DNA from: Raphidiopsis brookii D9
Lineage (GTDB): Bacteria > Cyanobacteriota > Cyanobacteriia > Cyanobacteriales > Nostocaceae
DNA length: 32,000 nucleotides
NCBI GenBank assembly: GCA_000175855.1
Contig: ACYB01000035.1
Coordinates: forward strand, 210,001 to 242,000
Direction: 5' to 3'
Shown: positions 2,188 to 27,670 of the stretch, in pieces
Layout of the letters: every line of letters begins with the position of its first letter
Numbering within the stretch: the stretch's first letter is position 1
Position numbers and translations under genes: made by a program
Notes under the pieces: model-generated
What the model was told of the DNA's origin: nothing
Database searches by the model: none
The model's input: only the letters and a program-made list of their open reading frames with translations

Positions 2188-3471
2188 GTGGCAAAAGTTG
2201 TATTAGAAAACGTTTACAAAACTTTCCCTCCCCGCATAGGAGAAGTTAAAATCGAAGCTAAGAGCCAAGAATCATTATCTTCCAACCAACCTGGAGATAG
2301 TATTCATGTCCTGCGTCGGATTAATTTAACTATTACTGAGGGCGAGTTTATGGTATTAGTGGGCCCGTCAGGTTGTGGAAAAAGTACCTTGCTACGTTTA
2401 ATAGCAGGATTGGAGGTGATGACAGGGGGTAACATTTGGATAGGGAATCATCTGATTAATGATTTACCTCCCAAGGCCAGAGATATTGCCATGGTATTTC
2501 AAAATTATGCTCTTTACCCCCATTTAACAGTTTATGAAAATATTGCCTTTGGTTTGCGTCGTCGTTTACCACTTAACCAAACTAGCTCTAAGGGAAGTGT
2601 CAGTTACTGGGGAGAAAATATGCTCATGGCATTGACTCAAAAACTACCCAAAGGATTACGTTATCAAACTCAAACAGAAAAAATCATAGAACAACAGGTT
2701 TTGAAAGTTGCTCAATTGCTACAAATAGACACAATGTTACATAGACTGCCTAAACAACTCTCTGGAGGACAAAGACAACGGGTAGCACTAGGTCGAGCAA
2801 TCGCTCGGGATCCACAAGTGTTTTTAATGGATGAGCCCCTCTCTAATTTAGATGCTAAATTACGAGCAGAAACTCGCGTACAAATTGTCCAGTTACAGCG
2901 ACAATTGGGAACAACCACTATTTATGTCACCCATGACCAAACGGAAGCAATGACTATGGGCGATCGCATTGCTATTATGAATATGGGACAAATTCAACAA
3001 GTTGCCCGTCCCTTAGAAATATATAATTATCCCAAAAATCGCTTTGTGGCAGAATTTATTGGTTCACCACCGATGAATTTTATTCCCGTAGAATTTTATG
3101 CACCCCTATTAATTACCCATAGCAATTTCCGCTTTACCCTACCAAATGAGTGGGGAAAAGCACTACAAAAATACAGTGGACAAACTGTAATTTTAGGGAT
3201 TCGTCCAGAGCACCTAATTTTAAGCGTACCAGCTACAAAAAATATACCGGTCAAAGTAGATCTAGTAGAAAATCTAGGAAATGATAGTTTCGTGAGTGTA
3301 AGAATAATTAATCCTGATTTACCAAAATTAGATGGTCAGATTCTACAGGTAAGAGTACCTTCGGATAGACTAATTGAAATGGGGGATCAAATTTGGCTAT
3401 CACCTATTATGGAAAAACTGCACTTTTTTGATCGAGAAACCGAACTAGCAATCTTTACCAATAACCAATAA
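2188..3471 (+). CDS. ABC transporter ATP-binding protein, MalK/UgpC/MsmX sugar-importer ATPase family (orphan, no permease nearby)
   Basis: GTG start. Walker A GPSGCGKST, Q-loop MVFQNYALYPH, signature LSGGQRQRVALGRA, Walker B VFLMDEPLSNLD, H-loop YVTHDQ, and a C-terminal MalK-type regulatory domain. Relative to E. coli MalK there are two insertions: about 25 aa before Walker A and about 35 aa after GLRRR. Confidence 0.9.
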   Translation: MAKVVLENVYKTFPPRIGEVKIEAKSQESLSSNQPGDSIHVLRRINLTITEGEFMVLVGPSGCGKSTLLRLIAGLEVMTGGNIWIGNHLINDLPPKARDIAMVFQNYALYPHLTVYENIAFGLRRRLPLNQTSSKGSVSYWGENMLMALTQKLPKGLRYQTQTEKIIEQQVLKVAQLLQIDTMLHRLPKQLSGGQRQRVALGRAIARDPQVFLMDEPLSNLDAKLRAETRVQIVQLQRQLGTTTIYVTHDQTEAMTMGDRIAIMNMGQIQQVARPLEIYNYPKNRFVAEFIGSPPMNFIPVEFYAPLLITHSNFRFTLPNEWGKALQKYSGQTVILGIRPEHLILSVPATKNIPVKVDLVENLGNDSFVSVRIINPDLPKLDGQILQVRVPSDRLIEMGDQIWLSPIMEKLHFFDRETELAIFTNNQ

Positions 3472-13617: not shown

Positions 13618-15126
13618 ATGAAATTTACATCTGCACTCTACGGTCTATTTCTAGTAATTGTTCTAATCACTTACTGGAATATTAAGCAACCAAAGTTTCG
13701 TCTGTGGACAATAATTATTTCCAGCATAGTTTTTTACGCCTCCTGGGATGTTCAGTATATACCACTAATAATAGTCCTAACATTTATTAACTTTCGGCTA
13801 GGGTTAGAAATTGCCGAAAAGTCTGCCTCAAATAATTACCCAAAGGAAAACAACAACAACCAAAACTCAGACCAAGATCCAGAAATTATAGAAGGTGACT
13901 GGAATCGCAACAGGCTGAAAATTTTAGCTTTAGGTATTTGTTTAAATGTAGGCTTATTATTAGTTTTTAAATACTCGACCATTCTATCTGAATGGATATT
14001 GATGTGGGATATCACTCCAGAAAATGCCAGTTTTAAGTTGGGTATTCCCCTAGGAATTTCATTTTTTACATTTGAGAATATAGCTTATCTAGTAGATGTT
14101 TATCGAGGAGTACCCCCAGCTGATAACCTATTAAAATTTACGTCCTATAAATTATTTTTTGCCAAACTAATTTCTGGACCAATTACCCGCTACCAACAAA
14201 TATCTTGGCAATTTGATCAGCCAAAAATTAACCATATTTACACATGGACAGAAGGTTTATGGTTAATTGCCAGAGGTGCGGTGAAAAAAGGAGTTTTAGC
14301 CGACAATTTAGGAATTTTCGTAGAATTGTGTTTTAATAATGTACAAAGAGCGGGTAGCACAGATTTATGGTTAGCTACTTTTGCTTACGGTCTTCAACTG
14401 TATTTGGATTTCAACGGTTATGTAGACATTGCCCGTGGTAGTGCTTTATTACTTGGTTTAGTATTACCAGAAAACTTTGATTTTCCCTACTTGAGTGGTA
14501 GTATTGCTGATTTTTGGCGTCGTTGGCATATTACCCTAGGTGACTGGTTACGTAATTACTTATATTTTCCCTTGGGGGGTTCTCGTCGGGGATTATTACG
14601 TACCTGTGTTAACCTATTAATAGTCATGTTAATAGCCGGTATTTGGCATGGTTCCGCATGGGGTTTTGTGGTGTGGGGGGGTTCACATGGTATAGCTTTA
14701 TGTATTCATAGAGTTACAGATGTGGTTAGCAATAATTCCAAGATTTTACGTCTATTTTGGCATCATCCTTTAGGGATAATTTTGGCATGGTTCTTAACTC
14801 AATTGACCGTATTTACCTCTTGGATTTGGTTTCGGTTACCTAGAATTGAAGATTCAGCATTAGTCATGGGAAATCTCTGGGGACACACAGCTGATGTGCA
14901 ATTTATCGAGAAGGTTTATATGGAAGCTCTAAATACTAGTCCTAATCAGGTATTATGGGGTTTAATTTTAATATTTGTCTTCATGATTGTGGCTTATGTA
15001 TTTAAACGAAAACTTCACTTAGAACTGACCTGGCAGTTAAAACTGGTTTTTGTGCCTCTATGTTTTTATGCAGTTTGGTTATTGGCACCTCAAGGAAGTT
15101 TGCCTTATATTTATTTTGATTTTTAA
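13618..15126 (+). CDS. MBOAT family O-acyltransferase (AlgI/DltB/PatA-like)
   Basis: 502 aa and polytopic. It carries the conserved MBOAT core FWRRWHITLGDWLRNYLYFPLGGSRRG and IWHGSAWGF. It is translationally coupled to the upstream gene. Confidence 0.9.
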   Translation: MKFTSALYGLFLVIVLITYWNIKQPKFRLWTIIISSIVFYASWDVQYIPLIIVLTFINFRLGLEIAEKSASNNYPKENNNNQNSDQDPEIIEGDWNRNRLKILALGICLNVGLLLVFKYSTILSEWILMWDITPENASFKLGIPLGISFFTFENIAYLVDVYRGVPPADNLLKFTSYKLFFAKLISGPITRYQQISWQFDQPKINHIYTWTEGLWLIARGAVKKGVLADNLGIFVELCFNNVQRAGSTDLWLATFAYGLQLYLDFNGYVDIARGSALLLGLVLPENFDFPYLSGSIADFWRRWHITLGDWLRNYLYFPLGGSRRGLLRTCVNLLIVMLIAGIWHGSAWGFVVWGGSHGIALCIHRVTDVVSNNSKILRLFWHHPLGIILAWFLTQLTVFTSWIWFRLPRIEDSALVMGNLWGHTADVQFIEKVYMEALNTSPNQVLWGLILIFVFMIVAYVFKRKLHLELTWQLKLVFVPLCFYAVWLLAPQGSLPYIYFDF

Positions 15127-15155
15127 GGAAACATTTTAGTGATAAAATAGTGGGT

Positions 15156-15584
15156 ATGGTTCACCACATCCAAAACTTCGGACCTATTAAATCAGGACTT
15201 ACAGAAAATGAGGGCTTGGTTACAGCTGGTAATACACTAATTATGACCACTCATAGTCCTTACATTATTGACTACCTTACCTTAGCAATTAAAGCACAGC
15301 AGATTTTACAAACTTTTGATAATTTCCCGAAGGGAGAGTTTTTAAAAACTAAACTCAAAAATATTGTTCCTTTGAATTCCTCCATATTTCCAGAAGATTC
15401 AATTGTATACGAGTTAACAGATAGTGGAGAAATTAGAAAACTTTCTACCTATGAAGGACTACCTTCTGATGAAAATTATTTGAATAGTTGTTTGGCAGAA
15501 ACCAATCGATTTTTCAGTGACTTATTAGAAATTGAGGAAGAAATACTATTTTTCCACCCACTCATCAGACAATCCATAAAATAA
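15156..15584 (+). pseudogene. remnant of an ABC-like AAA_15/AAA_21-type ATPase, apparently internally deleted
   Basis: The N-terminus MVHHIQNFGPIKSG matches the first beta-strand of this family (I.NFg.Ik). The sequence then jumps directly to the C-terminal H-loop region NTLIMTTHSPYIIDYL. Walker A, the signature motif and Walker B are all absent. The 3' end overlaps cbiO by 39 nt. Confidence 0.45.
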
Positions 15585-16331
15585 CATTTCACATATTAAT
15601 GGTAAACCCAACTCCAACTCTTCTAATAATCTTCGTTGACTAAATACATCCTGGGGACTTCCTTCCAGCACTAATTTTCCTCTATCCATCACAAAAACCC
15701 AATCCGCCCACCTATAAACTAAATCTAAATCATGAGTTGCCATCACTAATGTAGTTCCATATTCATGAATTTTATTCAGCATTGCTATCAAATTACGAGT
15801 CTGTTTAATATCCAGATATGCAGTAGGTTCATCCAATAATAACAATTCCGGACTTAGTACCAGCTTATCCGCCTTGGAAACCCGCCTTTTTTGTCCTAAA
15901 CTCAGATGATGAGTAGGTGTTTGTGCTAAACCAGTTAGCTCAAATTCCATCAATGCTTTCTCTACCCGCTGTTGAATTTCTACCAACGGTAAACCCAAAT
16001 TACATAAACCATAAGATATATCTTCTTCAACAGTAGCAGCTACTAATTGTTGTTCTGGATCTTGAAACACCAATCCAACTTTCTGTCTTAATCTACCTAG
16101 ATAATTTCGGTTGTAAGTTAACGGTTCACCACACCAACTTACAACCCCACGATTGGGTTTATACAATCCATTAGCTAGTAATAAAAGTGTTGTTTTTCCA
16201 CAACCATTCTGACCAATCAAGGCACACTTCTTACCTGATGGAATTCTCAATGTTAGACTATTCAAAGCTAATTGTTGAGATTCCATATAACTGTAATATA
16301 CTTCTTTAAACTCTAGTAGGTATTCCCGCAT
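15546..16331 (-). CDS. cbiO: ECF cobalt transporter ATP-binding protein
   Basis: Walker A GQNGCGKTT, Q-loop VFQDPEQQL, signature variant LSLGQKRRV, Walker B LLLLDEPTAYLD, H-loop ATHDLD. It is the last gene of the cbiMNQO operon. Confidence 0.9.
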   Translation of the reverse strand: MREYLLEFKEVYYSYMESQQLALNSLTLRIPSGKKCALIGQNGCGKTTLLLLANGLYKPNRGVVSWCGEPLTYNRNYLGRLRQKVGLVFQDPEQQLVAATVEEDISYGLCNLGLPLVEIQQRVEKALMEFELTGLAQTPTHHLSLGQKRRVSKADKLVLSPELLLLDEPTAYLDIKQTRNLIAMLNKIHEYGTTLVMATHDLDLVYRWADWVFVMDRGKLVLEGSPQDVFSQRRLLEELELGLPLICEMLFYGLSDEWVEK

Positions 16332-16332
16332 T

Positions 16333-17118
16333 TTACCAAAAATTTAATCCTATTAACACTACACAACCAACTATTGACTCAATTATATATCGCAGTTGCA
16401 AACGATACCGACGTTGGCGCCAAACCCGAAATTCGCTTACAAAACCTCTTGCTTCCAGTCCCAGAGAAAACTGATTATATTGCTGTAAGCTACGCTGCAG
16501 CAGTTTTCCTATCAGTATTGCTAAACTTTTCATCCCCACACCAACAGTGCGATAACCACCACGAGAAGTTTGTGCCATCCACAATTCATTCGCTGTGCTC
16601 AACAAAATGAAAATAAATCTATACATTAGCAATAATAGGTCCGTTATCAGTATGGGAACCCCTAAATAGCGCAAAATTCCTAGTATTTCTGTAAAAGGAA
16701 TAGTTAGTATCATAAAGTATACACAAGAAGCAGAAGATAAGGATCGAGTTAAAATATTCCATGCCTGGATTGTTCCATTATGACTGATATAAACATAAAA
16801 ATTCCCTAGAGTTATTCCATGCCACGAGTCTAATTTGACACTTTCTATATCAAAAATGCTTACACCATTAACTATGAGAGCTGGTAAACTCATCAAGCCA
16901 AAAACTATGGTCAACATCAACAACTGTAAATAAACCTTGGCTGGAATTCTGGCATAAATAACTGTCCAAATACTCATCCAGATCACAATTAAAATTTGTA
17001 CTCGGGTATCACTAGCTAGAGAAATAGCAAGGGTGGTAACCGCAAAAATAAGTTTATGCCATGGTGATAATTTTCCTAGTCTATTAGTATAAGATAAAGT
17101 ATCTATTTGGTGGATCAT
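16333..17118 (-). CDS. cbiQ: ECF transporter transmembrane (T) component
   Basis: 261-aa polytopic protein between cbiN and cbiO. It has the C-terminal LEARGF arginine-containing motif typical of CbiQ/EcfT. It sits 1 nt from the cbiO start. Confidence 0.85.
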   Translation of the reverse strand: MIHQIDTLSYTNRLGKLSPWHKLIFAVTTLAISLASDTRVQILIVIWMSIWTVIYARIPAKVYLQLLMLTIVFGLMSLPALIVNGVSIFDIESVKLDSWHGITLGNFYVYISHNGTIQAWNILTRSLSSASCVYFMILTIPFTEILGILRYLGVPILITDLLLLMYRFIFILLSTANELWMAQTSRGGYRTVGVGMKSLAILIGKLLQRSLQQYNQFSLGLEARGFVSEFRVWRQRRYRLQLRYIIESIVGCVVLIGLNFW

Positions 17119-17124
17119 CAGAAA

Positions 17125-17439
17125 TTATTTTGCTGGCTTATTCTTAGGGTTTTGCGGTTGGGAACGTCCCTTGTATAACCCAATTGCATAACCAACCACT
17201 CCAGCGCCCAAAGCTGCTTGTAAAGCAAATAATAAACTTTCTATTTCTCCACTAGGAGGTTCAAACAATGATGTAAACCAAGGTTTATATTTAGGTTGTA
17301 TTTCAGTTATTACCTTTTGGGCTTGCTGATCGGCCCCTCCAAATTCACTATCACGAATTAACACTAGTGGTGTCACCGCTAAAATTACTACACCTACTAC
17401 CAAAAGCCAGTTAATTAACCCTTTCTGAGACTGATTCAT
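17125..17439 (-). CDS. cbiN: cobalt transport protein CbiN
   Basis: 104 aa with two TM helices flanking a loop that contains FGGADQQA...KPWF...[21 protein letters not shown], the CbiN pattern. It overlaps the cbiM 3' end by 29 nt. Confidence 0.85.
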
Positions 17440-18199
17440 TTCCCTTTCCTCCCTTGATTAATTGTAAAAGTTCCAACTCTTGAGGATTATAAGATTGTAG
17501 CCAATTCCACACTAGCAGGGTTAGCAATCCTTCGCTAATTGCTAAAGGAACTTGAGTAATGGCAAAAATTCCAGTAAACTTGACGAATGAGGCCATAAAG
17601 CCACCAACCGGTGCGGGAAAAGCCAGGGCAAGTTGTATAGAGGTAATTATATATGTCAGTAAATCTGCTATCGCAGCTGACAAAAAGATGGCAATTTTCT
17701 CTTTACCACTAATTTTAATTGTCAAATTGTATATCCAATATGCAGCAAAAGGTCCAGCTATGGCCATAGAAAAGGCATTGGCCCCCAATGTGGTTAATCC
17801 ACCATGTGCTAACAGCAAGGATTGAAATAATAGGACCAAGCTACCCAGGACTGACATTGTTAAAGGACCAAATAGTACTGCACCCAATCCAGTACCGGTG
17901 GGATGGGAGGAACTACCCGTAACCGAGGGGATTTTTAATGCTGACAGCACAAAAGCGAAAGCACCAGCCAAACCCAGTAGTAGTTTCAGCTGGGGGTTGG
18001 CCTGAGTAGTGCGAGTTAGACTGCGTAACCCAAGAATAAAAAAGGGTAATGCTACTACCCACCAAAAAACTGCCCACTCTACTGGTAGGAAACCCTCCAT
18101 AATGTGCATGGCGTAGGCGGGCTTTGGCACACTAACTAATATACAGAAACTGACAATTGCTATTAGGGTGGGATTGAATAAACCCCGTTTTACTCTCAC
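17411..18199 (-). CDS. cbiM: ECF cobalt transporter substrate-capture component CbiM (with a cleavable leader)
   Basis: The mature N-terminus MHIMEGFLP, typical of CbiM/NikM, is preceded by a signal-like leader ending in AYA. I prefer the GTG at 18199 ([31 protein letters not shown]). The track start at 18250 is TTG and lies inside the promoter elements described below. Confidence 0.88.
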
Positions 18200-18243
18200 A
18201 ATTTCTACCTCACAAACTTTATCCGACTTTTTGGCGATTGCTG

Positions 18244-18273
18244 TTGACAAGCAAATCTTACCTTAACTATACT
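18244..18273 (+). promoter_or_regulatory. near-consensus sigma70-type promoter for the 18338 ATPase gene
   Basis: TTGACA (18244-18249) - 18 nt - TATACT (18268-18273). The predicted TSS is near 18280, about 58 nt upstream of the start codon. It interdigitates with the divergent cbiM promoter. Confidence 0.5.
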
Positions 18274-18284
18274 GTTTAAGTCAA
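18255..18284 (-). promoter_or_regulatory. candidate sigma70-type promoter for cbiMNQO
   Basis: The minus strand reads TTGACT - 18 nt - TAAGAT. This places a TSS near 18248, about 50 nt upstream of the GTG at 18199. Confidence 0.4.
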
Positions 18285-18287
18285 CAA

Positions 18288-18308
18288 ACATTGTTGGTCG
18301 AACAATGT
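18288..18308. promoter_or_regulatory. perfect 8-5-8 inverted repeat ACATTGTT-GGTCG-AACAATGT (operator or 5'-UTR hairpin)
   Basis: Read directly from the sequence. It lies just downstream of the predicted plus-strand TSS and just upstream of the minus-strand -35 element. Confidence 0.4.
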
Positions 18309-18337
18309 AATGCCAGTAAATAAATTATTAGCCACCA

Positions 18338-19672
18338 TTGGATATAACAAAATCTCTTTACCAAGCTTGCAACCCCAACAAAACCTTAAATAGTAATAAT
18401 CCTGAAGATAAAAAACGGTATATTGACTTCTCTCCAGTTCGGGGACGGGAAATAATTAAGGAACTAAAACGGACTATTACCCGACTTTCCCCAGATTTAC
18501 CAACTTGTCAACTGTTTACTGGACATATCGGTGTGGGTAAGTCTACTGAGTTAATGCGTCTAAAATCAGAACTGGAAACTGAATTTTTTCACGTAGTATA
18601 TTTTGAATCTAGTCAGACTTTGGATTTAGGAGATGTTGATGTTACGGACATTTTATTAGCAATAGCTAAAGAAGTAAGTCACAGTTTAGAGGTTACACAA
18701 ATCAAAGTTAAATCCGGATTTTTCCAGACTCTATTTAAGGATGTGATTGAGTTCTTACAAACACCCTTGGATATTGATTTTGAGGCGGAGTTATCTGTTG
18801 GTATAGCTAAAATCACTGCAAAAACTAAGGAAAGTCCCAAACTACGTAATCAGCTCAGACAGTATTTAGAACCTCGCACCGCTAGTATTTTACAGTCCAT
18901 CAATAGAGAATTACTAATCCCTGCTCAAGAGGAATTAAAACAGCGGGGTAAGTCAGGTTTAGTAGTAATTATTGATAATTTAGACAGGATAGATAATAGT
19001 CCTAAAGCTAATGGTCAATATCAACCAGAATATCTGTTTGTTGAAAGAGGTGAAGATTTAAAAGCTTTAAGCTGTCATATTGTGTATACTATTCCTTTAG
19101 TGCTGATATTTTCCAATGCTTTAGGTAGATTAATTAATCGCTTTGGGGTAGATCCTAAAGTGTTGCCAATGATATCTGTTAAACAAAGAAATGGTGAATA
19201 CTACTCAGCAGCTATGACACTTCTACAACAAATGATTATGGTCAGAGCTTTTCCCGGTGTGAATTGGCAACAAAGTTCAGAGAAATTGGCCTTGACCACT
19301 CAGATTTTTGATAGTCCTAAAACGTTTGATCGCCTTTGTCAGGTTAGCGGTGGCCACTTACGTAGTCTTTTGAAGTTGTTGTTTCGTTGTTTACAATCCC
19401 AGGATGTACCAATTTCTCGTCTATGTTTGGAAAATACCATTAGAGAACAATGTAATCTGTTAAGTTTAGCTATTACACCTGATGAATGGGAACTATTGCG
19501 AGAAGTACGGAAAACAAAAACATATAGAGGTGAAGAACAGTATGATATTTTGCTACGCAGCTTGTTTGTTTTTGAATATCGAGATCACCAAGGTTCTTGG
19601 TTTGATATTAATCCAATTTTATTAGAAAACTCCGAATTTTCTGGGTATTATAGGGATTCATATCATGAATAA
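18338..19672 (+). CDS. P-loop NTPase with an Orc1/Cdc6- or STAND-like AAA+ layout; function unknown
   Basis: 444 aa. The N-terminal lead-in YIDFSPVRGREIIKELKRTI precedes Walker A GHIGVGKSTEL and Walker B LVVIIDNLDRID. A helical C-terminal half follows (GGHLRSLLKLLFRCL). The start at 18338 is TTG. The stop overlaps the next ORF in ATGAATAA. Confidence 0.7.
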   Translation: MDITKSLYQACNPNKTLNSNNPEDKKRYIDFSPVRGREIIKELKRTITRLSPDLPTCQLFTGHIGVGKSTELMRLKSELETEFFHVVYFESSQTLDLGDVDVTDILLAIAKEVSHSLEVTQIKVKSGFFQTLFKDVIEFLQTPLDIDFEAELSVGIAKITAKTKESPKLRNQLRQYLEPRTASILQSINRELLIPAQEELKQRGKSGLVVIIDNLDRIDNSPKANGQYQPEYLFVERGEDLKALSCHIVYTIPLVLIFSNALGRLINRFGVDPKVLPMISVKQRNGEYYSAAMTLLQQMIMVRAFPGVNWQQSSEKLALTTQIFDSPKTFDRLCQVSGGHLRSLLKLLFRCLQSQDVPISRLCLENTIREQCNLLSLAITPDEWELLREVRKTKTYRGEEQYDILLRSLFVFEYRDHQGSWFDINPILLENSEFSGYYRDSYHE

Positions 19673-20114
19673 TTTGGAGAATGTTGCTAATAATAACCAT
19701 GATGCAATTAGGAGTATATTGAGAGCTATTAGCTTTTCCCAAGGTCAGTTTTCTCTTATCTTTTTACACTGTAATTGTGTTAGATTCCACCGGGAAATAG
19801 CAGTAAAATTGCGTGGGAGTTATTGTACAAGAATTGAGGAGATAAATCTATCCCCATCCGCTATAAGTCTCTATGACAACATATCAGCCACAATGGTAAA
19901 TATACAACCCTATGCTGTGATGGTTTTTGGTTTAGATGCTGCTAAGAATCTGGATTCGATTTTACAAGTGTCAAACCAAATTAGAGAGGAATTTAGCAGA
20001 AAATTTGCCTTTCCGCTATTTATTTGGATAGATGATCAAGTACTTAGAAGAATTATTAGGATTGCACCAGACTTAGAAAGCTGGAGTACTATTATTAAGT
20101 TACAGTCTCCCTAA
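19665..20114 (+). CDS. 149-aa protein resembling the N-terminal module of large cyanobacterial TPR/CHAT proteins (possibly truncated)
   Basis: Motifs QGQFSLIFLHCNC..FHREI, AVMVFGLDAAKNLDSILQVSNQIREEFSRKFAFPLFIWIDDQVLRRIIRIAPDLESWST. From memory, these match the start of proteins over 1000 aa long (..ALILARCNY.. / ..VFGLE.. / NQVREEFRKNF.FPLVLWV.D.. / APDFESWAT). It overlaps the upstream ATPase gene by 8 nt and the convergent cupin gene by 15 nt. Confidence 0.55.
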   Translation: MNNLENVANNNHDAIRSILRAISFSQGQFSLIFLHCNCVRFHREIAVKLRGSYCTRIEEINLSPSAISLYDNISATMVNIQPYAVMVFGLDAAKNLDSILQVSNQIREEFSRKFAFPLFIWIDDQVLRRIIRIAPDLESWSTIIKLQSP

Positions 20115-20537
20115 AACCGCCAGATCTTCAACGTCCAGGTCGACAGGTATACCACTTCTAATCAGTTCCGAGAAATCTTCGTTAGGAATCATAACAGTGA
20201 GTATATAAAGACGAGTTTTACCCGTATTTCTAATCAGATGGATGCCCATTGGTGGTACTAATAAACTATCCCCAGCCTTGATATTTACTTTTTTACCATC
20301 ACAAATTGCCATACCCTCCCCCTTGAGAATGAAGAACATTTCTACGGCCCACTGATGGCGATTAGGTGGAGTTTGTCCACCAATATCAAAAATTTCCACA
20401 CAGCAAGTTAAAGAAGTATTAGCTGTGTTGGAATCAAAGATAATTGCTAACCGATTAGTATCATAAGGGCTAATGCGGTATGCTTGATAATCTTGAGGAG
20501 ACTTGATCACAGGAATAATACAACGATGACTAATCAT
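20100..20537 (-). CDS. cupin domain protein
   Basis: 145 aa with a cupin_2-like core: NRHQWAVEMFFILKGEGMAICDGKKVNIKAGDSLLVPPMGIHLIRNTG. Confidence 0.75.
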   Translation of the reverse strand: MISHRCIIPVIKSPQDYQAYRISPYDTNRLAIIFDSNTANTSLTCCVEIFDIGGQTPPNRHQWAVEMFFILKGEGMAICDGKKVNIKAGDSLLVPPMGIHLIRNTGKTRLYILTVMIPNEDFSELIRSGIPVDLDVEDLAVLGRL

Positions 20538-20743
20538 ATAATTAATATTTTTTGCTTAATTTCGTTATAATCTTAACTAGCTTGATTTTATGGGACGCTA
20601 TCTAAAATGATTGCTAAATTTTTAACTACGAACCATAAATAATAGTAATTTAGGTGTTAGGGAATTAACTTTAAAAAAAGGTAAAATTCACAAAAAGGCA
20701 AAAATCATGAATTCTATTGTACGGAGATAATAACTAGTATTTT

Positions 20744-22205
20744 ATGACCATAACACTAGAAGAAATGCGTAAAAAGCTAAAACAGGTTTGGGGTTATGAA
20801 AATTTTCGTCCTCCTCAAGAAGAAATAGTCAGTAGTTTGCTATCACAAAAAGATGCTTTAATTATTATGCCTACGGGAGCGGGAAAATCTATTTGTTTTC
20901 AACTTCCAGCCCTTTTAAGTAATGGTTTAACTCTGGTAGTTTCACCATTAATTGCATTAATAGAAAATCAGGTTGAAGAGCTAAAACAAAGGAATCAAAA
21001 GGCAGATCTGCTGCACAGTGAATTACCTGCTAGTCAACGTTATAAGGTTTTAGAATCTATTAGTAAACAACAGTTGAGATTATTATACTTATCACCAGAA
21101 ACTCTCCTCAGTTCTGCTGTGTGGGAAAAAATCTCCCATCCCCACATAGGAATTACCTCCCTAATATTAGATGAAGCACATTGTTTGGTACAATGGGGAG
21201 AAACATTTAGACCAGTCTATCGTCGTTTAGCAGCTGTGCGTCCGTCCTTATTAAACACCAAACCGCCGGGAACAAAAATTAGTGTAGCAGCTTTCACAGC
21301 TACCGCTGACCCTAGTACACAAAACATTATTAAGGATGTTTTGCAATTACAACAACCTGACATTTATCGACTTAATCCCTATCGTCAAAATTTACAACCT
21401 ACTGTCAAAACTGTCTGGACACCAAAAGCAAGAAAACAGCAATTATTAAAGTTCCTTCAACTCCATCCCCATCAAACAGGATTGATTTATGTTAGAACTC
21501 GTAAAGACAGTGAAGAATTGGCTCAATGGTTAATGAATCTTGGCTATCATACAGCTAGTTACCATGGGGGTTTGAGTGGGGAAGAAAGACGAGCTATAGA
21601 AAAAAGTTGGTTGCATGGAAAAAAATCATTTGTTGTCTGTACTTGTGCTTTTGGTATGGGGATCAATAAAGCTGATGTTCGATGGATAGTCCATTTTCAT
21701 GCTCCCTATTTATTATCAGAATATGTTCAGGAAATTGGACGTGCAGGAAGAGATGGAATAGTTGCAGAAGTTTTAACTTTTATCAGTGAACCTAACCGGT
21801 TTTTTTGATGGGGAAGACCAAAGAAGAAAACTGTTTTTTCAGCAACAAATATTACAACAATACAAAAAAGCTCAAGAATTAATTAAGAAATTACCACTAC
21901 AGGGAGAAGTTAAGTCCGTAGTTAAAGAATTTCAACATGGTGCGACAGCACTGGCCATACTTCATAGCAGTGGAAGACTACTCTGGAATGACCCTTTTCA
22001 TTATCAGATTTTGGGTAGGGATATTCATCAGAGCAGGACATACTTTAATCCTGCTCAACAAATGGTTGAATATTTAAGAACTAAAAACTGTCGTTGGCAG
22101 TTTTTATTGCAGTCCTTTGGCTTTAATAAAGATAGAGAAAATTGGCGTTGTGGACACTGTGACAACTGTAGATTTAAATCAGGGGGTTTTCAGGGGATTT
22201 CTTGA
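20744..22205 (+). pseudogene. recQ: ATP-dependent DNA helicase RecQ, interrupted by a +1 frame break at a T7 run
   Basis: ORF 20744-21808 carries helicase motifs I-VI (MPTGAGKSICFQLPAL, LDEAHCLVQWG, FTATAD, QEIGRAGRDG). ORF 21786-22205 carries the RecQ Zn-binding region (CRWQFLLQSFGF...CGHCDNC). The two frames meet at TTTTTTT (21800-21806). Removing one T gives the seamless reading ...SEPNRFFDGEDQRRK... Confidence 0.8.
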
Positions 22206-22263
22206 TAATTGCCATCTGGAGTATAATGTTTGGCCATACTAACTTTAATTAACTTTGAATTTA

Positions 22264-23796
22264 ATGAGTTTAGACAAAATATATAAAACTGATGTTTTAG
22301 TTGTGGGTGGAGGAACTGGAGGAACCACTGCTGCTATTCAAGCAGCTCGTAGGGGATGTAAAACTATTCTGGTGAGTGAGTTTTCTTGGTTGGGAGGGAT
22401 GTTAACTAGTGCTGGTGTATGTGCGCCTGATGGTAATGAATTAAACTCCTTTCAAACAGGAATATGGGGAGATTTTATCCGCGAGTTACAAAAACGACAA
22501 TCAGGAGGACTAAATAACAGCTGGGTGAGCTTTTTTAGTTATCAACCCCAGGTGGGAGCGGGAATTTTTGCTGATTGGATAAAAGAACTACCTAATCTAC
22601 AATGGATTACCCACAGAATTCCCCTAGAAGTATTACGTCAGGGAGATCGCATTGTAGGTGTAAGTTTTGCAGATTGTACTATTTATGCCCAAATAATTCT
22701 GGATGGTACGGAATTAGGTGACGTTTTAGCTTTGGGAGAAGTGCCTTATCGTTGGGGTTGGGAATTGCAATCTGAATGGGGAGAAACTAGCGCCCCCAGC
22801 AGTTTTAACTCCCTCACAAAAACATACCCCATACAAGCACCAACATGGGTAGTAATAATGGAGGATTTTGGGGAGGTTCTTGCTCCGGAAATTCCTCCCG
22901 CACCCAATTATGACCCAGCTTTGTTTGCAGGAGCTTGGGAAAACTATGGAAAAGAAAAATTTTTAAACTATGGACGTTTGCCACAAAACTGGTTTATGAT
23001 TAATTGGCCGATTTGTGGTAATGACTACGGTCAAGGAACCAGTCGGTTGTTAGAGTCAAAAGCAAGGAATGAGTTCTATCAAGAGTGTTTTTGGCACAGT
23101 CAAAACTTCGCCCGTTACATTCAAACCAGTTTCGGTAGGCGTTATGGTCTGGCCCAGGGAGCTTTTCCTACTGTATCTCCAGCTTTTGCTCTTCACCCCT
23201 ATTTTCGTGAAGGTCGTCGCTTACAAGGGGTTACTACCATCTGTGAACAGGACCTTTTACCCCTCTCCAACGGTTCCGTAGCACCTCTTATGAAGGATAC
23301 GGTTGCTATTGGTAACTATGCCAATGATCATCACTACCCGGGTATAAAGTTCCCCCTACAACCTAAGTCTCTTCTCTGGGGAGGACGTTGGACCGGTACT
23401 CCTTTCACCATTCCATATTCCTCCCTAATCCCTAAATCTATAGATGGTTTACTGGTGTGTGAGAAAAATATTTCCGTCTCCCACATTGCTAACGGTGCAA
23501 CTAGACTTCAACCCGTAGTTATGGGCATAGGACAAGCTGCTGGTATGGCAGCAGCACTCTGTTGTGAGTTGAATTGTCAACCGAGGGATTTACCAGTCAA
23601 GACACTACAAATGGCTCTGTTAACTGATAAGCACTCACCCGCAGCAGTTATTCCCCTACTCAATTTATCCATGAATCATCCGGATTGGTTGAGGTGGCAA
23701 ATTGATATTCTAAATCACCCAGAAATCTATCCCCCAAGTGGTAATATTTTGACCTGTGGGGGGAACATACACCAGTCGACTTTCCATCATTTTTAG
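22264..23796 (+). CDS. FAD-dependent oxidoreductase (FAD_oxidored / GIDA-like fold), probably 3'-truncated by a frame break
   Basis: Dinucleotide-binding motif DVLVVGGGTGGTTAAIQAARRG. The track start at 22255 is TTG; I use the ATG at 22264. See the next feature for the displaced C-terminus. Confidence 0.8.
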   Translation: MSLDKIYKTDVLVVGGGTGGTTAAIQAARRGCKTILVSEFSWLGGMLTSAGVCAPDGNELNSFQTGIWGDFIRELQKRQSGGLNNSWVSFFSYQPQVGAGIFADWIKELPNLQWITHRIPLEVLRQGDRIVGVSFADCTIYAQIILDGTELGDVLALGEVPYRWGWELQSEWGETSAPSSFNSLTKTYPIQAPTWVVIMEDFGEVLAPEIPPAPNYDPALFAGAWENYGKEKFLNYGRLPQNWFMINWPICGNDYGQGTSRLLESKARNEFYQECFWHSQNFARYIQTSFGRRYGLAQGAFPTVSPAFALHPYFREGRRLQGVTTICEQDLLPLSNGSVAPLMKDTVAIGNYANDHHYPGIKFPLQPKSLLWGGRWTGTPFTIPYSSLIPKSIDGLLVCEKNISVSHIANGATRLQPVVMGIGQAAGMAAALCCELNCQPRDLPVKTLQMALLTDKHSPAAVIPLLNLSMNHPDWLRWQIDILNHPEIYPPSGNILTCGGNIHQSTFHHF

Positions 23797-24062
23797 GTTT
23801 ATCAATTGATGAGCATAATCACTTAGACCATGATTGTTGGATAGGAATTTTTAATCGCATCGGTAAACAAGATTACGAGTTTACTGTCACAAATCCCCCG
23901 GACTTGTCTTTTTCAACCTGGAAAATTGTTACTTTGGAGTCATCTGTTAACCAACAGCTAGAAATTCTCAATCAAAATTCCAAGATTTGCATCAGAGGAC
24001 GTTTAAATTCTTCTGGTAACTGGATTCTTGCAGAACATATTACATATTCAGATAATATATGA
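23745..24062 (+). other. 105-codon open frame with no start codon, likely the displaced C-terminus of the FAD oxidoreductase
   Basis: My translation: YFDLWGEHTPVDFPSFLGLSIDEHNHLDHDCWIGIFNRIGKQDYEFTVTNPPDLSFSTWKIVTLESSVNQQLEILNQNSKICIRGRLNSSGNWILAEHITYSDNI*. I see no in-frame ATG or GTG and no early TTG. It overlaps the upstream ORF across a G6 run (23758-23763). Adding one G joins the frames as ...TCGGEHTPVDF... Confidence 0.55.
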
Positions 24063-24115
24063 TTGAGCTTCTTGCAGTTAAATAAAGATTAAGTCAATAG
24101 ATTTCTTCAAGATTA

Positions 24116-24121
24116 TCCGGA
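24116..24121 (+). promoter_or_regulatory. DIF1-type motif TCCGGA upstream of the patX-like ORF
   Basis: An exact TCCGGA lies 58 nt upstream of the ATG at 24179. Candidate -10 elements are TAAAAG (24141-24146) and TAATCA (24148-24153). DIF1 is the -35-region motif of heterocyst-induced promoters in Anabaena. Confidence 0.4.
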
Positions 24122-24178
24122 TTCATAGGTGATAGACAAGTAAAAGCTAATCAGATAGTTCTAAAATAGACATCTACT

Positions 24179-24391
24179 ATGCGTGCTACCATTTCAATTC
24201 TAGTATCAAGTATGATACTCGGTTCCTTAGCTTTTAATCGCGAAACTCTGTTCACTAATCCCTCTCGGTTGTCAACCTCTAATTCGGGAACCGGTTTACT
24301 ATTTGCAGACAGTTCTAAACCTAGTCCTAATCGACCCGGGGAACCCGTAACCTACCGTGGTAGTGGACGCAAAGAGTCAATTAACCTCTAA
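24179..24391 (+). CDS. patX: PatX-like RGSGR-containing small secreted protein (HetR-inhibitor family)
   Basis: 70 aa: a hydrophobic N-terminus (MRATISILVSSMILGSLAF), a Ser/Pro-rich middle (KPSPNRPGEP), and an exact RGSGR pentapeptide (nt 24356-24370) six residues from the C-terminus. This is the tripartite PatX architecture. Its neighbours match the Anabaena 7120 locus as I recall it. Confidence 0.7.
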   Translation: MRATISILVSSMILGSLAFNRETLFTNPSRLSTSNSGTGLLFADSSKPSPNRPGEPVTYRGSGRKESINL

Positions 24392-24545
24392 AACTACCAA
24401 AGGAAATTAACTGGTATCATGGTTGTTGACAGTAGACAGAACTCCAGCAACAAACAGAACACTTTCTGAACATCTTTTCCGGGTTTGACTTCTCCCTGGG
24501 TCGAAACACTGGGGAGGGTAAACCCACTTCCCTTGGTCTATTTTA

Positions 24546-25595
24546 TCAAAGAGGTTTGCAAGCAATTATATACTTACTTAAGAAGTGCACTTCGGTTCTG
24601 ATTTGATCAAAACCAGCTTTCTCTAGTCGTGCTACTAAATCATCAAGACTATAATTGATATAGTAAGGTTCATGAAATGTGCGAGGAAAGTTGTTAATAA
24701 TATCAACCAGGTCAGGAGAATCACTGATTTGAATGGAATCACAAATAATGAAAACTCCTCCTGGTTTAATAACTCGGAAACATTGTTCAATTACTGCTTG
24801 TCGCACTGCTGCTGGTAATTCATGAAACAGAAAAACACTAGTCACCCCATGGAAATAATTATCCAAGTAGGGTAGTTCTTCCGCATTGGCTTGGATAAGC
24901 TGGGGTAATTCAGTATAATTTTCAGCTAGAAGTTGATTGGCTTTGCGCAAGTAATTGGGCGATAGATCAACACCAAATAGAGATGCTTCCCGGATTGCTC
25001 CTCTCAGCAACTTTAAGGTTCTGCCAGTGCCACATCCTACATCTAAAATACGTACATGCTTGAGAGGGAAGAATTTTTTCAGTTGGTGCTTGAGAGGTGA
25101 TAGTATGCGACGTCTCATCCCATCCCCAGTCCCATTAAATAGGATTTCTACCTGCAGGTCATACAAGTTGGCAGAAAGGTCGCTTAAATAACCATCCGTT
25201 TGATGATGGAAGTTTTGTAAATAGTAGCTGGGATAGATCTTTTCCTCCTGTGGTTGGGAAAAATCTTGATATTGCTGACGCTCTGCTCTTTCCCATACTT
25301 GGAACATATCTACACACAGCGCAGGATAGTACAAACAGAAGTCTAACCAAGAATTGTCAAATAGTAAATCATAAGGATATACACCTTGTTGAGCATCTTG
25401 CCAATCCAACTCTAATAATCTGTTGAGTCTATCTTGTAAGTTGGCGATCGCCTGTTGAGAAATTGGTTGAGACTTGTTTGAATTAGGGTAAATATGGTTT
25501 TTAACTCGCGTACCCAGGAATTTATGAGCTAGACTAAAATAGCTTTTTCCCTGTTGGTAAGCTTGGTAGGTAAGTTTTGTAAAGTCGTTAAACAT
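24546..25595 (-). CDS. class I SAM-dependent methyltransferase
   Basis: 349 aa. Motif I is VRILDVGCGTGRTL and the post-II/III region is KPGGVFIICD. An N-terminal extension of about 170 aa has unknown function. Confidence 0.85.
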   Translation of the reverse strand: MFNDFTKLTYQAYQQGKSYFSLAHKFLGTRVKNHIYPNSNKSQPISQQAIANLQDRLNRLLELDWQDAQQGVYPYDLLFDNSWLDFCLYYPALCVDMFQVWERAERQQYQDFSQPQEEKIYPSYYLQNFHHQTDGYLSDLSANLYDLQVEILFNGTGDGMRRRILSPLKHQLKKFFPLKHVRILDVGCGTGRTLKLLRGAIREASLFGVDLSPNYLRKANQLLAENYTELPQLIQANAEELPYLDNYFHGVTSVFLFHELPAAVRQAVIEQCFRVIKPGGVFIICDSIQISDSPDLVDIINNFPRTFHEPYYINYSLDDLVARLEKAGFDQIRTEVHFLSKYIIACKPL

Positions 25596-25720
25596 AACAA
25601 TATTTTAGCAACATTTAATTAGTATCCAGTATCACCTCATCTCTCCATCGTAACACAATATTGCCATTCCCACTTCTTCCAAACTCCCTATTGTAAATTT
25701 TTGTAACAAATTAGAATTTG

Positions 25721-25734
25721 GTAGTTTAAGTTAC
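25721..25734 (+). promoter_or_regulatory. NtcA-binding site (GTA-N8-TAC) overlapping the gifA promoter -35 region
   Basis: An exact GTAgtttaagtTAC is followed after 12 nt by TACTAT (25747-25752). This is closer than the N22 spacing of activated promoters, so it is consistent with repression. A second, imperfect site GTAaatttttgTAA lies at 25693-25706. Confidence 0.6.
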
Positions 25735-25805
25735 GGAATTCCCTGCTACTATAAAAAAGTGGGAAGAAAAAAACCATCCACATCAAAAAACAAGAGGATA
25801 AAAAT

Positions 25806-26006
25806 ATGTCTATCCAAGAAAAGTCCCGTGTGTTAATGGCCCGTCAACACCAACAAGTTAAAAACCGTCAACAATCAATGTTAATGCGTGCAGCCCAAGA
25901 GTTGGGACTACCCGAAGAAACTTGCCAATATTGGAGTCCCATTCAAGGGAAAGTAGATCCTACCACTCAAACTCTTTATAGCCCTAGTGGTGCGACCATG
26001 AGCTAA
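25806..26006 (+). CDS. gifA: glutamine synthetase inactivating factor IF7
   Basis: 66 aa. MSIQEKSRVLMARQHQQVKNRQQSMLMRAAQELGL... matches the conserved IF7 core (ARxLMxRHHQxIKNRQQSML). It is convergent with glnA, as in Anabaena PCC 7120. Confidence 0.85.
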   Translation: MSIQEKSRVLMARQHQQVKNRQQSMLMRAAQELGLPEETCQYWSPIQGKVDPTTQTLYSPSGATMS

Positions 26007-26125
26007 AGATTCCTAATCACCTGGGCGTGCGTTAAGAATTGTCTTAATGGAGAACGCAGGGTAGGTTTTTGGTGTGTCGTTTTTAGACGGTACAAAGGAC
26101 GTTTCCGCATGCCTGAAAATATTAA

Positions 26126-26152
26126 GGAGTACACCGCAAACGGTTGTACTCC
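26126..26152. terminator. hairpin between convergent gifA and glnA (candidate bidirectional terminator)
   Basis: GGAGTACACCG-CAAA-CGGT(T)GTACTCC forms an 11-bp stem with one bulged T. It is followed by TATTGTTG on the plus strand and TTAATATTTT on the minus strand. Confidence 0.45.
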
Positions 26153-26236
26153 TATTGTTGTCTGTATCTAGCTGTATGTAGCAGCAAAAGGTATGTTAGT
26201 GGAGTTGGGAGAAAGATTCCTAGAAGAAGATTGGCA

Positions 26237-27670
26237 TTAGCAATCGTAATAAAGGAAAAATTCGTAGGGGTGAGGACGTAACTGCAACTGCTTGACCTCA
26301 TTTGCTAGCTTGTAGTCAATCCAATTTTGGATGAAATCTTCTGAGAACACACCTGTTTCGGTTAGGAAAGCATGATCATTTTCCAGCGCTTCCAGAGCTA
26401 GTTCCAGAGAACCTGGAGTAGAAGGAATCTTAGCCAGTTCTTCTGGAGAAAGTTCATAGATGTTCTTATCCAAAGGTTCGCCAGGATGAATTTTATTCTT
26501 AATTCCGTCAATACCAGCACAAAGCATGGCAGCAAAAGCTAAGTAGGGATTAGAAGTAGCATCTGGGCAGCGGAATTCTAAACGTTTAGCTTTAGGATTG
26601 TCTCCACTTAAAGGAATACGTACAGAAGCAGAACGGTTACCTTGAGAATAAGCTAAGTTAACAGGTGCCTCGTAACCAGGAACAAGACGTTTGTAAGAGT
26701 TAGTAGTTGGATTTGTAATCGCTAGTAGAGCAGGAGCATGTTTAAGAATGCCACCGATATAGTAAAGACCCATATCACTCATACCTGCATATTTATCACC
26801 GGCAAATAAGGGCTTGCCATCTTTCCAAATAGACTGGTGACAGTGCATACCAGAGCCATTATCACCAAAAATGGGTTTAGGCATGAAGGTAACAGTCTTA
26901 CCGTACTTTCTAGCTACGTTTTTGATCACATACTTGTAAGTCATTAACCAGTCAGCAGCTTCTATTAACTTGCCAAAGCGGAAGCCAAGTTCGCACTGAC
27001 CACCTGTAGCCACCTCATGGTGTTGTTTTTCAATCGGGACACCACATTTAGCCATAGTCAACAACATTTCCGTGCGCATGTCGTGGAAGGTATCAGTGGG
27101 GGGCACGGGGAAATAACCTTCCTTAAACCGGGTTTTATAACCTAGGTTAGGACCATCAGCTTCCCCATTTTTACCCTTTCTACCAGTATTCCAACGACCT
27201 TCCACAGAATCTACATGATAGTAACCTTCATTAGCGGTTTGGTCATAACGCACATCATCAAAGATAAAGAATTCTGCTTCTGGACCAAAAAAGGCCGTAT
27301 CACCTATTCCCGTAGTTCCTAAATAATCTATAGCCTTTTGAGCAATCACCCGGGGACAGCGGTTATACCATTCACCCGTGCGGGGTTCTTTAATACTACA
27401 AATAATGCTGAGAGTCGGTTCCTTCATAAAGGGGTCAATCCAAGCTGTGCTGGCATCCAGCACCATGGTCATATCTGACTCTTCAATCCCTTTCCACCCT
27501 CTAATACTAGAGCCATCGAAAGGTACACCACTAGTGAAAGAACTTTCGTCAATTTGATTGTGGTAAACCGTTAGATGTTGCCAGGTTCCGGGTGTGTCTA
27601 TGAACTTGAGATCAATCATTTGAATGTTTTGATCCCGGATCATCTTTAACACTTCTTGTGGGGTTGTCAT
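26237..27670 (-). CDS. glnA: glutamine synthetase type I
   Basis: 477 aa. It has the conserved GSI motifs [25 protein letters not shown] and [17 protein letters not shown], plus the C-terminal YYDC. Confidence 0.97.

Follow-up and report, generated by a model that had tools for sequence, protein, structure and literature searches.

PatX and other carriers of the HetR-inhibiting peptide

The gene examined here is a short open reading frame (ORF) in a stretch of 32,000 nucleotides (nt) from Raphidiopsis brookii D9 (contig ACYB01000035.1, positions 210,001 to 242,000; hereafter the window), and its closest described counterpart is patX (asl2332) of Anabaena/Nostoc PCC 7120. The PatX family was reportedly named in 2018, and Elhai and Khudyakov are said to have placed, in that year, the promoter motif DIF1 (TCCGGA) within 69 nt upstream of the patX start codon. 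The pentapeptide RGSGR also occurs in PatS, a product of 13-17 amino acids (aa) that has no signal peptide and is present in only a subset of heterocyst formers, and in HetN. The latter resembles ketoacyl reductases, has about 287 aa and is made late, in mature heterocysts; its RGSGR is internal and needed for HetR inhibition.

In Nostoc 7120, PatX has a functional Sec signal peptide and must be exported to be active; genetic evidence shows a requirement for the peptidase PatP (Alr1666), which cuts before and after the motif, and the hexapeptide HRGTGR, whose KD for HetR is 88 nM, abolishes HetR-DNA binding (PMC12756182). Expression of patX in Anabaena/Nostoc 7120 is dependent on hetR and hetZ, and its overexpression inhibits differentiation (PMC7377430, PMC7761841, PMC12756182); the hetZ dependence applies to expression from the DIF1 promoter in Anabaena (PMC7377430). 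HetZ is a sigma factor whose region 4 recognises T-35 C C G G A-30, and the sigma-HetZ promoter consensus is TCCGGA-N16-17-TGNA-N7-9-T, in which T-13 can be replaced by A (PMC13342950, PNAS 2026). Furthermore, PatX is reported in all HetR-containing cyanobacteria, non-heterocystous ones included (PMC7761841).

The window ORF resembles Asl2332 in its predicted signal peptide, its variable Ser/Pro-rich spacer and its [HY]RG[ST]GR near the C-terminus, in its promoter of the DIF1 -35 type, and in a neighbourhood with a methyltransferase, gifA and glnA. It differs in length (70 versus 77 aa), in the hexapeptide (YRGSGR versus HRGTGR) and in the number of residues after the motif (6 versus 13-14). 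In addition, no recognisable NtcA box lies upstream of DIF1 in the window, and the host strains of this allele form no heterocysts. With PatS of Anabaena PCC 7120 it shares the HetR-inhibiting RGSGR peptide and a DIF1/sigma-HetZ promoter (PMC7377430, PMC13342950), whereas PatS has 17 aa (PMC13342950) and no signal peptide and the window product has 70 aa with a hydrophobic leader.

A patX gene in the D9 window

Very likely, the Raphidiopsis/Cylindrospermopsis lineage has its patX orthologue in this ORF, which would act by the proposed HetZ-PatX-HetR feedback. The ORF starts with ATG, comprises 70 codons plus a stop and encodes MRATISILVSSMILGSLAFNRETLFTNPSRLSTSNSGTGLLFADSSKPSPNRPGEPVTYRGSGRKESINL; the span 24116-24391 runs from the DIF1 hexamer through its stop codon. 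Its features and those of its promoter are as follows.

24179-24391, + strand: patX coding sequence (CDS), 70 aa plus stop (profile hidden Markov model (HMM) match, family alignment, and a ratio of nonsynonymous to synonymous substitution rates (dN/dS) of 0.38-0.46 against other alleles)
24179-24235, + strand: predicted Sec-type signal-peptide region, residues 1-19, with MR, a hydrophobic core and SLA-F (hydropathy and conservation)
24353-24370, + strand: YRGSGR, the predicted mature HetR-binding hexapeptide (sequence and family comparison)
24116-24121, + strand: DIF1 hexamer TCCGGA, predicted -35 element of a sigma-HetZ-type promoter (exact match, invariant in 14 loci)
24139-24142, + strand: predicted -10 element AGTA, 17 nt past TCCGGA, of the TGNA type with A at -13 (invariant AAGTA and the published consensus)
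24150-24152, + strand: predicted transcription start, T at 24151 likeliest, giving a 5' untranslated region (5'UTR) of about 28 nt (from N7-9 in the sigma-HetZ consensus)
24157-24178, + strand: nearly invariant 5'UTR segment AGTTCTAAAATAGACATCTACT without a Shine-Dalgarno sequence (identical in 13 of 14 Nostocales loci)

The profile match marks the ORF as a true patX, a member of a family already described. Against the NCBIfam equivalog NF047413 ('heterocyst-inhibiting protein PatX'), whose curated cutoff is 30 bits, the product scored 65.9 bits (E = 4.1e-18), residues 1-66 aligning with profile positions 1-68/69, and the Pfam family PF28278 ('PatX') is precomputed on an identical database protein. 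A Pfam scan with a release predating PF28278 gave no match for the 70-aa product, and no family other than PatX was significant in its NCBIfam and Pfam scans. Similarity is not limited to the pentapeptide, since the BLASTP alignment with a 77-aa family member of the HRGTGR type (37% identity over 68 aa) takes in the N-terminus.

A profile search of 1.8 billion representatives retrieved 57 members of the family. The motif reads RGSGR in 50 of 55 aligned sequences, RGGGR in three and RGTGR in one, and is missing from one; M1 and R64 are invariant, and R2, R60, G61, S62 and G63 are at least 90% conserved. The residue preceding RGSGR is tyrosine in 25 and histidine in 24 of 54 family sequences, so the YRGSGR of the window is a normal variant; a change from histidine to tyrosine at this position, considered as a peculiarity of the window, was ruled out on the same counts. 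Short tails are common in the family as well, with 4-7 residues after RGSGR in at least eight other representatives.

The sequence-only reading, whose factual statements all proved correct, had ascribed to this product a three-part PatX anatomy, and all three parts are present. The N-terminus is hydrophobic, with Kyte-Doolittle means over nine residues of up to 2.3 (residues 5-13) that fall below 0 beyond residue 14, and it is followed by a signal-peptidase-like S-L-A at residues 16-18, where SLA-F fits signal peptidase cleavage. M1 and R2 are invariant or nearly so across the family alignments, and SLAF is invariant in close relatives. A Ser/Pro-rich spacer then leads to RGSGR at residues 60-64 of 70 (nt 24356-24370), the only occurrence of RG[ST]GR in the six-frame translation of the window; shuffled sequences had a mean of 0.077 occurrences, with at least one in 7% of them. 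The suspicion that so short a gene would be mislabelled also proved right, as the identical proteins EFA72757.1 (R. brookii D9) and OSO90864.1 (Cylindrospermopsis raciborskii CENA303) are both named 'hypothetical'.

Promoter and 5'UTR

The promoter was compared across 14 loci, namely the window, CENA303, Raphidiopsis curvata NIES-932, two C. raciborskii and nine from Anabaena, Trichormus, Sphaerospermopsis and metagenome-assembled genomes. The TCCGGA noted upstream of the ORF in the sequence-only reading has its last base 58 nt from the A of the ATG (57 nt between), and this distance is exactly the same in all 14 loci. It also falls within the 69 nt reported for patX. In the alignment, TCCGGA and AAGTA are invariant and the 17-nt spacer is variable. 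Given that TCCGGA(24116-24121)-N17-AGTA(24139-24142)-N8-T(24151) fits the sigma-HetZ consensus, we predict a start near 24151. TCCGGA occurs nine times in the 32-kb window against 3.6 expected, and the chance of finding it inside a given interval of about 64 nt is roughly 1-2%. The extended pattern TCCGGA-N16/17-[TA]GNA has two copies in the window, and the patX copy is the only one before a gene start. A search of the + strand upstream of patX gave no sigma-70-like promoter. The HMM score and the invariant placement of DIF1 in orthologous loci put the combination of PatX and DIF1 far beyond chance.

Downstream of the predicted start, the conserved 5'UTR contains GTTCTAAAATAGAC at 24158-24171, with a GT-N10-AC core. 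The 5'UTR together with the early CDS folded with z = +0.66, showing no compensatory pairs and no conserved RNA structure, and Rfam had no match anywhere in the window. As neither structure nor covariation was found, RNA structure does not account for the conservation of the 5'UTR; the conserved 22 nt might be an operator or a translation signal.

Upstream of DIF1, a GT[TCG]-N8-TAC box lies 13-14 nt before TCCGGA in all nine non-Cylindrospermopsis Nostocales loci. At the corresponding place in the window there is a remnant of it:

24077-24098, + strand: NtcA-like box remnant, GTTAAATAAAG and ATT, split by the clade-specific 11-bp insertion ATTAAGTCAAT at about 24088-24098 (alignment and GTN10AC scan)

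GTA-N8-TAC, the NtcA-like site ahead of DIF1 in heterocyst formers, does not occur there. The NtcA-like box accompanies patX in heterocyst formers and does not define the protein family.

Gene neighbourhood

The genes around patX in the window are as follows.

20744-22205: recQ, frameshifted (gene calls and comparison with relatives)
22255-24062, + strand: flavin adenine dinucleotide (FAD)-dependent oxidoreductase, the upstream neighbour, frameshifted, in the position of alr2333
24546-25595, - strand: class I S-adenosylmethionine (SAM) methyltransferase, the convergent neighbour, in the position of alr2331
25806-26006, + strand: gifA, glutamine synthetase inactivating factor IF7A, equivalent of asl2329 (NF052599, 114.5 bits)
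26237-27670, - strand: glnA, glutamine synthetase type I, equivalent of alr2328 (TIGR00653, 682 bits)

The order recQ, FAD oxidoreductase, patX, methyltransferase (-), gifA, glnA (-) is also found in CENA303, NIES-932 and other C. raciborskii genomes. Anabaena PCC 7120 has the order alr2333, asl2332 (patX), alr2331, asl2329, alr2328 (PMC7761841, plasmid constructions), to which the gene order of the window corresponds, so that patX stands in the orthologous position. The divergent pair gifA and glnA, the standard nitrogen-control pair of cyanobacteria, lies beside patX as in Anabaena. In Trichormus azollae (locus L006, 115-1008) and Sphaerospermopsis kisseleviana (locus L008, 599-1495), hetR lies at most 10 kb upstream of patX, in contrast to the window, where it is not within 10 kb.

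Two single-base indels are private to the window, an extra T in recQ (21793) and the loss of one G from a G7 run in the FAD oxidoreductase gene (23757). Compared with CENA303, NIES-932 and C. raciborskii, both genes are thereby split, which reflects either errors in the sequencing of an older assembly or real pseudogenes. Furthermore, CENA303 has a 94-bp insertion between gifA and glnA (L001 12038-12137; window 26211) that is mostly absent from the window, NIES-932 and L012.

Proposed mechanism

Every step of the mechanism that we propose is transferred by homology from Anabaena/Nostoc PCC 7120. HetR switches on hetZ, and the alternative sigma factor that this gene encodes would read TCCGGA at -35 and AGTA at -10 and start transcription near 24151. 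The 70-aa product would be exported via Sec by its N-terminal signal peptide, and the peptidase PatP would cut it outside the cytoplasm, freeing a short (Y)RGSGR-containing peptide. This peptide would then enter cells, bind HetR and block its binding to DNA, so that the HetR/HetZ circuit would be under negative feedback. This feedback would, in heterocystous relatives, restrict the positions at which heterocysts arise.

Host strains and the role of patX

The 70-aa protein is identical to OSO90864.1 and EFA72757.1, and the window is 99.4% identical to CENA303 contig NBYN01000042.1 over 14179-26211, with 100% identity over the patX region. CENA303 has never formed heterocysts in culture and, like D9, lacks the nif and hgl clusters and keeps hetR (PMC5834425). 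D9, CENA303 and NIES-932 are the three isolates reported without nif, and D9 and CENA303 are described as producing no heterocytes (PMC12089652). Published lists for D9 and C. raciborskii CS-505 include hetR, hetZ and patU3, and D9 expresses hetR (PMC2821919). Our own HetR protein search, with an approximate Anabaena query, gave more than 1600 clusters, and no Cylindrospermopsis was among the best 120 of them; the presence of hetR in the lineage therefore rests on the literature.

The earlier proposal that this gene is a core regulator of heterocyst pattern formation does not hold for D9 and CENA303, the only isolates in which the exact protein is documented, which make no heterocysts and have neither nif nor hgl (PMC5834425, PMC2821919). 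Given the absence of heterocysts, nif and hgl, patX cannot serve the spacing of heterocysts in these two strains. Most likely, patX persists in D9 and CENA303 to antagonise HetR within the HetR-HetZ-PatU-PatX circuit, which is conserved in filamentous cyanobacteria. It may even be the sole source of RGSGR in D9 and CS-505, since neither a typical patS nor hetN was found there by Stucken et al. 2010, who reported no typical patS in CS-505 or D9 and the absence of hetN and hetL from CS-505 (PMC2821919). The status of hetN is disputed, however, as Abreu et al. 2018 (PMC5834425) list 'hetN' in all eight of their genomes (seven C. raciborskii and D9).

The gene has in fact been seen before. Stucken et al. 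2010 proposed as patS candidate an RGSGR CDS, CRC_02157 in CS-505 and CRD_02133 in D9 (PMC2821919), which is very probably the patX gene reported here. The finding is thus not new: the gene and its likely role were already noticed in 2010, and a name for the family and curated NCBIfam and Pfam models followed.

The 70-aa deletion allele

Heterocystous C. raciborskii (CS-505 EFA69732.1, S07, CENA302, KL1 and PAMP2012) have a 77-aa PatX that is 81% identical to the window protein. The two alleles share the promoter, the 5'UTR, the synteny and the 11-bp insertion that removes the NtcA-like box. They differ at the 3' end, where the 77-aa allele ends PHRGSGRKESIEFLG..LA and is followed by about 290 bp more sequence with a weak terminator-like hairpin, whereas the window allele ends TYRGSGRKESINL and a stop. 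The place of the change in the window is:

24379-24386, + strand: deletion junction (...KESI/NL, stop), about 290 bp lost between the ancestral 77/78-aa and the 70-aa allele (alignment)

By this alignment, the 70-aa allele is the derived form, as against the 77/78-aa allele carried by other Nostocales, heterocystous C. raciborskii among them. The motif CAAT is present as microhomology at both ends of the deleted segment in the long allele (L012 10204-10506; L015 10001-10213), and NIES-932 has the same deletion junction. In L012 the deleted segment holds the weak terminator-like hairpin; in the window, a search downstream of patX turned up no intrinsic terminator.

The deletion allele is found in all three nif-less isolates, namely D9 and CENA303, both of clade R2A, and R. 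curvata NIES-932, of clade R1B. The 77-aa allele is found in CS-505, S07, CHAB3438, CENA302, PAMP2012 and KL1, and none of these named heterocystous strains has the deletion allele. By its site patterns, the interval around patX (23529-26317) places the window beside NIES-932; in the flanks, the patterns are star-like or place it with C. raciborskii. From patX across the methyltransferase gene, the window and CENA303 have the same sequence, but in glnA they are 4.5% apart, and there the window lies 0.2-0.3% from strains L017-L020. Of these strains, L019 has the long allele, and the others still possess the 3' segment missing from the short one. The window is thus a recombination mosaic, and recombination is evidently a frequent event in the complex. 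The association of allele with phenotype rests on effectively two lineages.

It is conceivable, though we consider it improbable, that the deletion haplotype was spread by recombination and contributes to the heterocyst-less Raphidiopsis phenotype. A possible route would be that loss of the terminator and of the C-terminal tail alters the output of the inhibitor, leaving HetR permanently repressed.

A further variant of the deletion allele has lost its stop codon. In at least 23 contigs from several metagenomes, CGT>CAT (R2H) and TAA>CAA extend the product to 97 aa; in its copies L021-L027 (gene at 3001-3294), DIF1, the -10 element and RGSGR are intact.

Functional gene or relic

Several observations weigh against a patX that acts by the proposed feedback. 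The deletion of about 290 bp removed nine C-terminal codons and the 3' flank. No GT-N10-AC was found upstream of DIF1 in the window, CENA303, NIES-932, L012 or L014, heterocystous strains included, and hetR is neither in the window nor in the 20-kb loci of close relatives. The host strains of the 70-aa allele differentiate no heterocysts, so that part of the output of the circuit is gone, and the metagenomic variant with R2H and stop loss could mean relaxed constraint.

These points bear on the alternative that patX is a decaying relic, unneeded in a lineage without heterocysts, nif and hgl, in which the 70-aa allele looks intact but is functionless and heading for loss. We regard this as unlikely. 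What speaks for it, beyond the failure of D9 and CENA303 to differentiate heterocysts (PMC5834425), is that the truncated C-terminus went together with a 3' flank that included the terminator-like hairpin, that the upstream NtcA-like box is gone, and that R2H in the widespread metagenomic variant, which has also lost its stop codon, removes the positive charge of the signal-peptide n-region. In addition, the dN/dS of patX (0.4-0.46) is well above that of its neighbours (0.12 for the methyltransferase gene and 0.03 for glnA). However, the ratio is equally 0.38-0.40 against alleles of heterocystous strains, and its height is a property of the variable spacer of the family. Every copy of the short allele, that of NIES-932 at 6% DNA divergence among them, has kept RGSGR, TCCGGA, AGTA, the 5'UTR and the core of the signal peptide intact. 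The NtcA-like box is missing from heterocystous C. raciborskii L012 and L014 too, which uncouples its absence from the loss of heterocysts. The truncated C-terminus is matched by the short post-RGSGR tails (4-7 residues) of the other family representatives counted above. Moreover, hetR is expressed in D9 (PMC2821919), and the reported occurrence of PatX in all HetR-containing cyanobacteria, non-heterocystous ones included (PMC7761841), likewise argues against a relic. With dN/dS at 0.38-0.46 whichever alleles are compared, and the motif and signal region intact in all of them, the gene gives no apparent sign of being dead.

That the ORF encodes some other RGSGR protein of the patS or hetN type, or is a chance ORF containing the pentapeptide, is very improbable and effectively refuted already: RG[ST]GR alone does arise in about 7% of shuffled 32-kb windows and the CDS was first put forward as a patS candidate (PMC2821919), but the PatX equivalog matches at full length with the N-terminus covered, no other NCBIfam or Pfam family is significant, synteny and promoter are conserved across genera, and PatS is far shorter and has no signal peptide, and HetN is much larger and ketoacyl reductase-like, unlike the 70-aa product with its hydrophobic leader.

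Significance

For the annotation of these genomes the gain is small: the 'hypothetical' 70-aa ORF in the GenBank records of D9 and CENA303 is confirmed as patX, a gene that the current NCBIfam and Pfam models already capture. An intact predicted sigma-HetZ/DIF1-patX module in heterocyst-less strains fits the published view that the HetR-PatX pair is older than heterocysts and serves control at the level of the filament. What remains of interest at the locus is that its hosts lack heterocysts, that the whole clade has lost the NtcA-like box, that the 5'UTR is invariant, and the pattern in which allele and phenotype go together. If the association of allele with phenotype held in a full strain survey, the deletion would be a simple marker, and possibly a partial cause, of the split between the Cylindrospermopsis and Raphidiopsis morphotypes of this bloom-forming toxic cyanobacterium.

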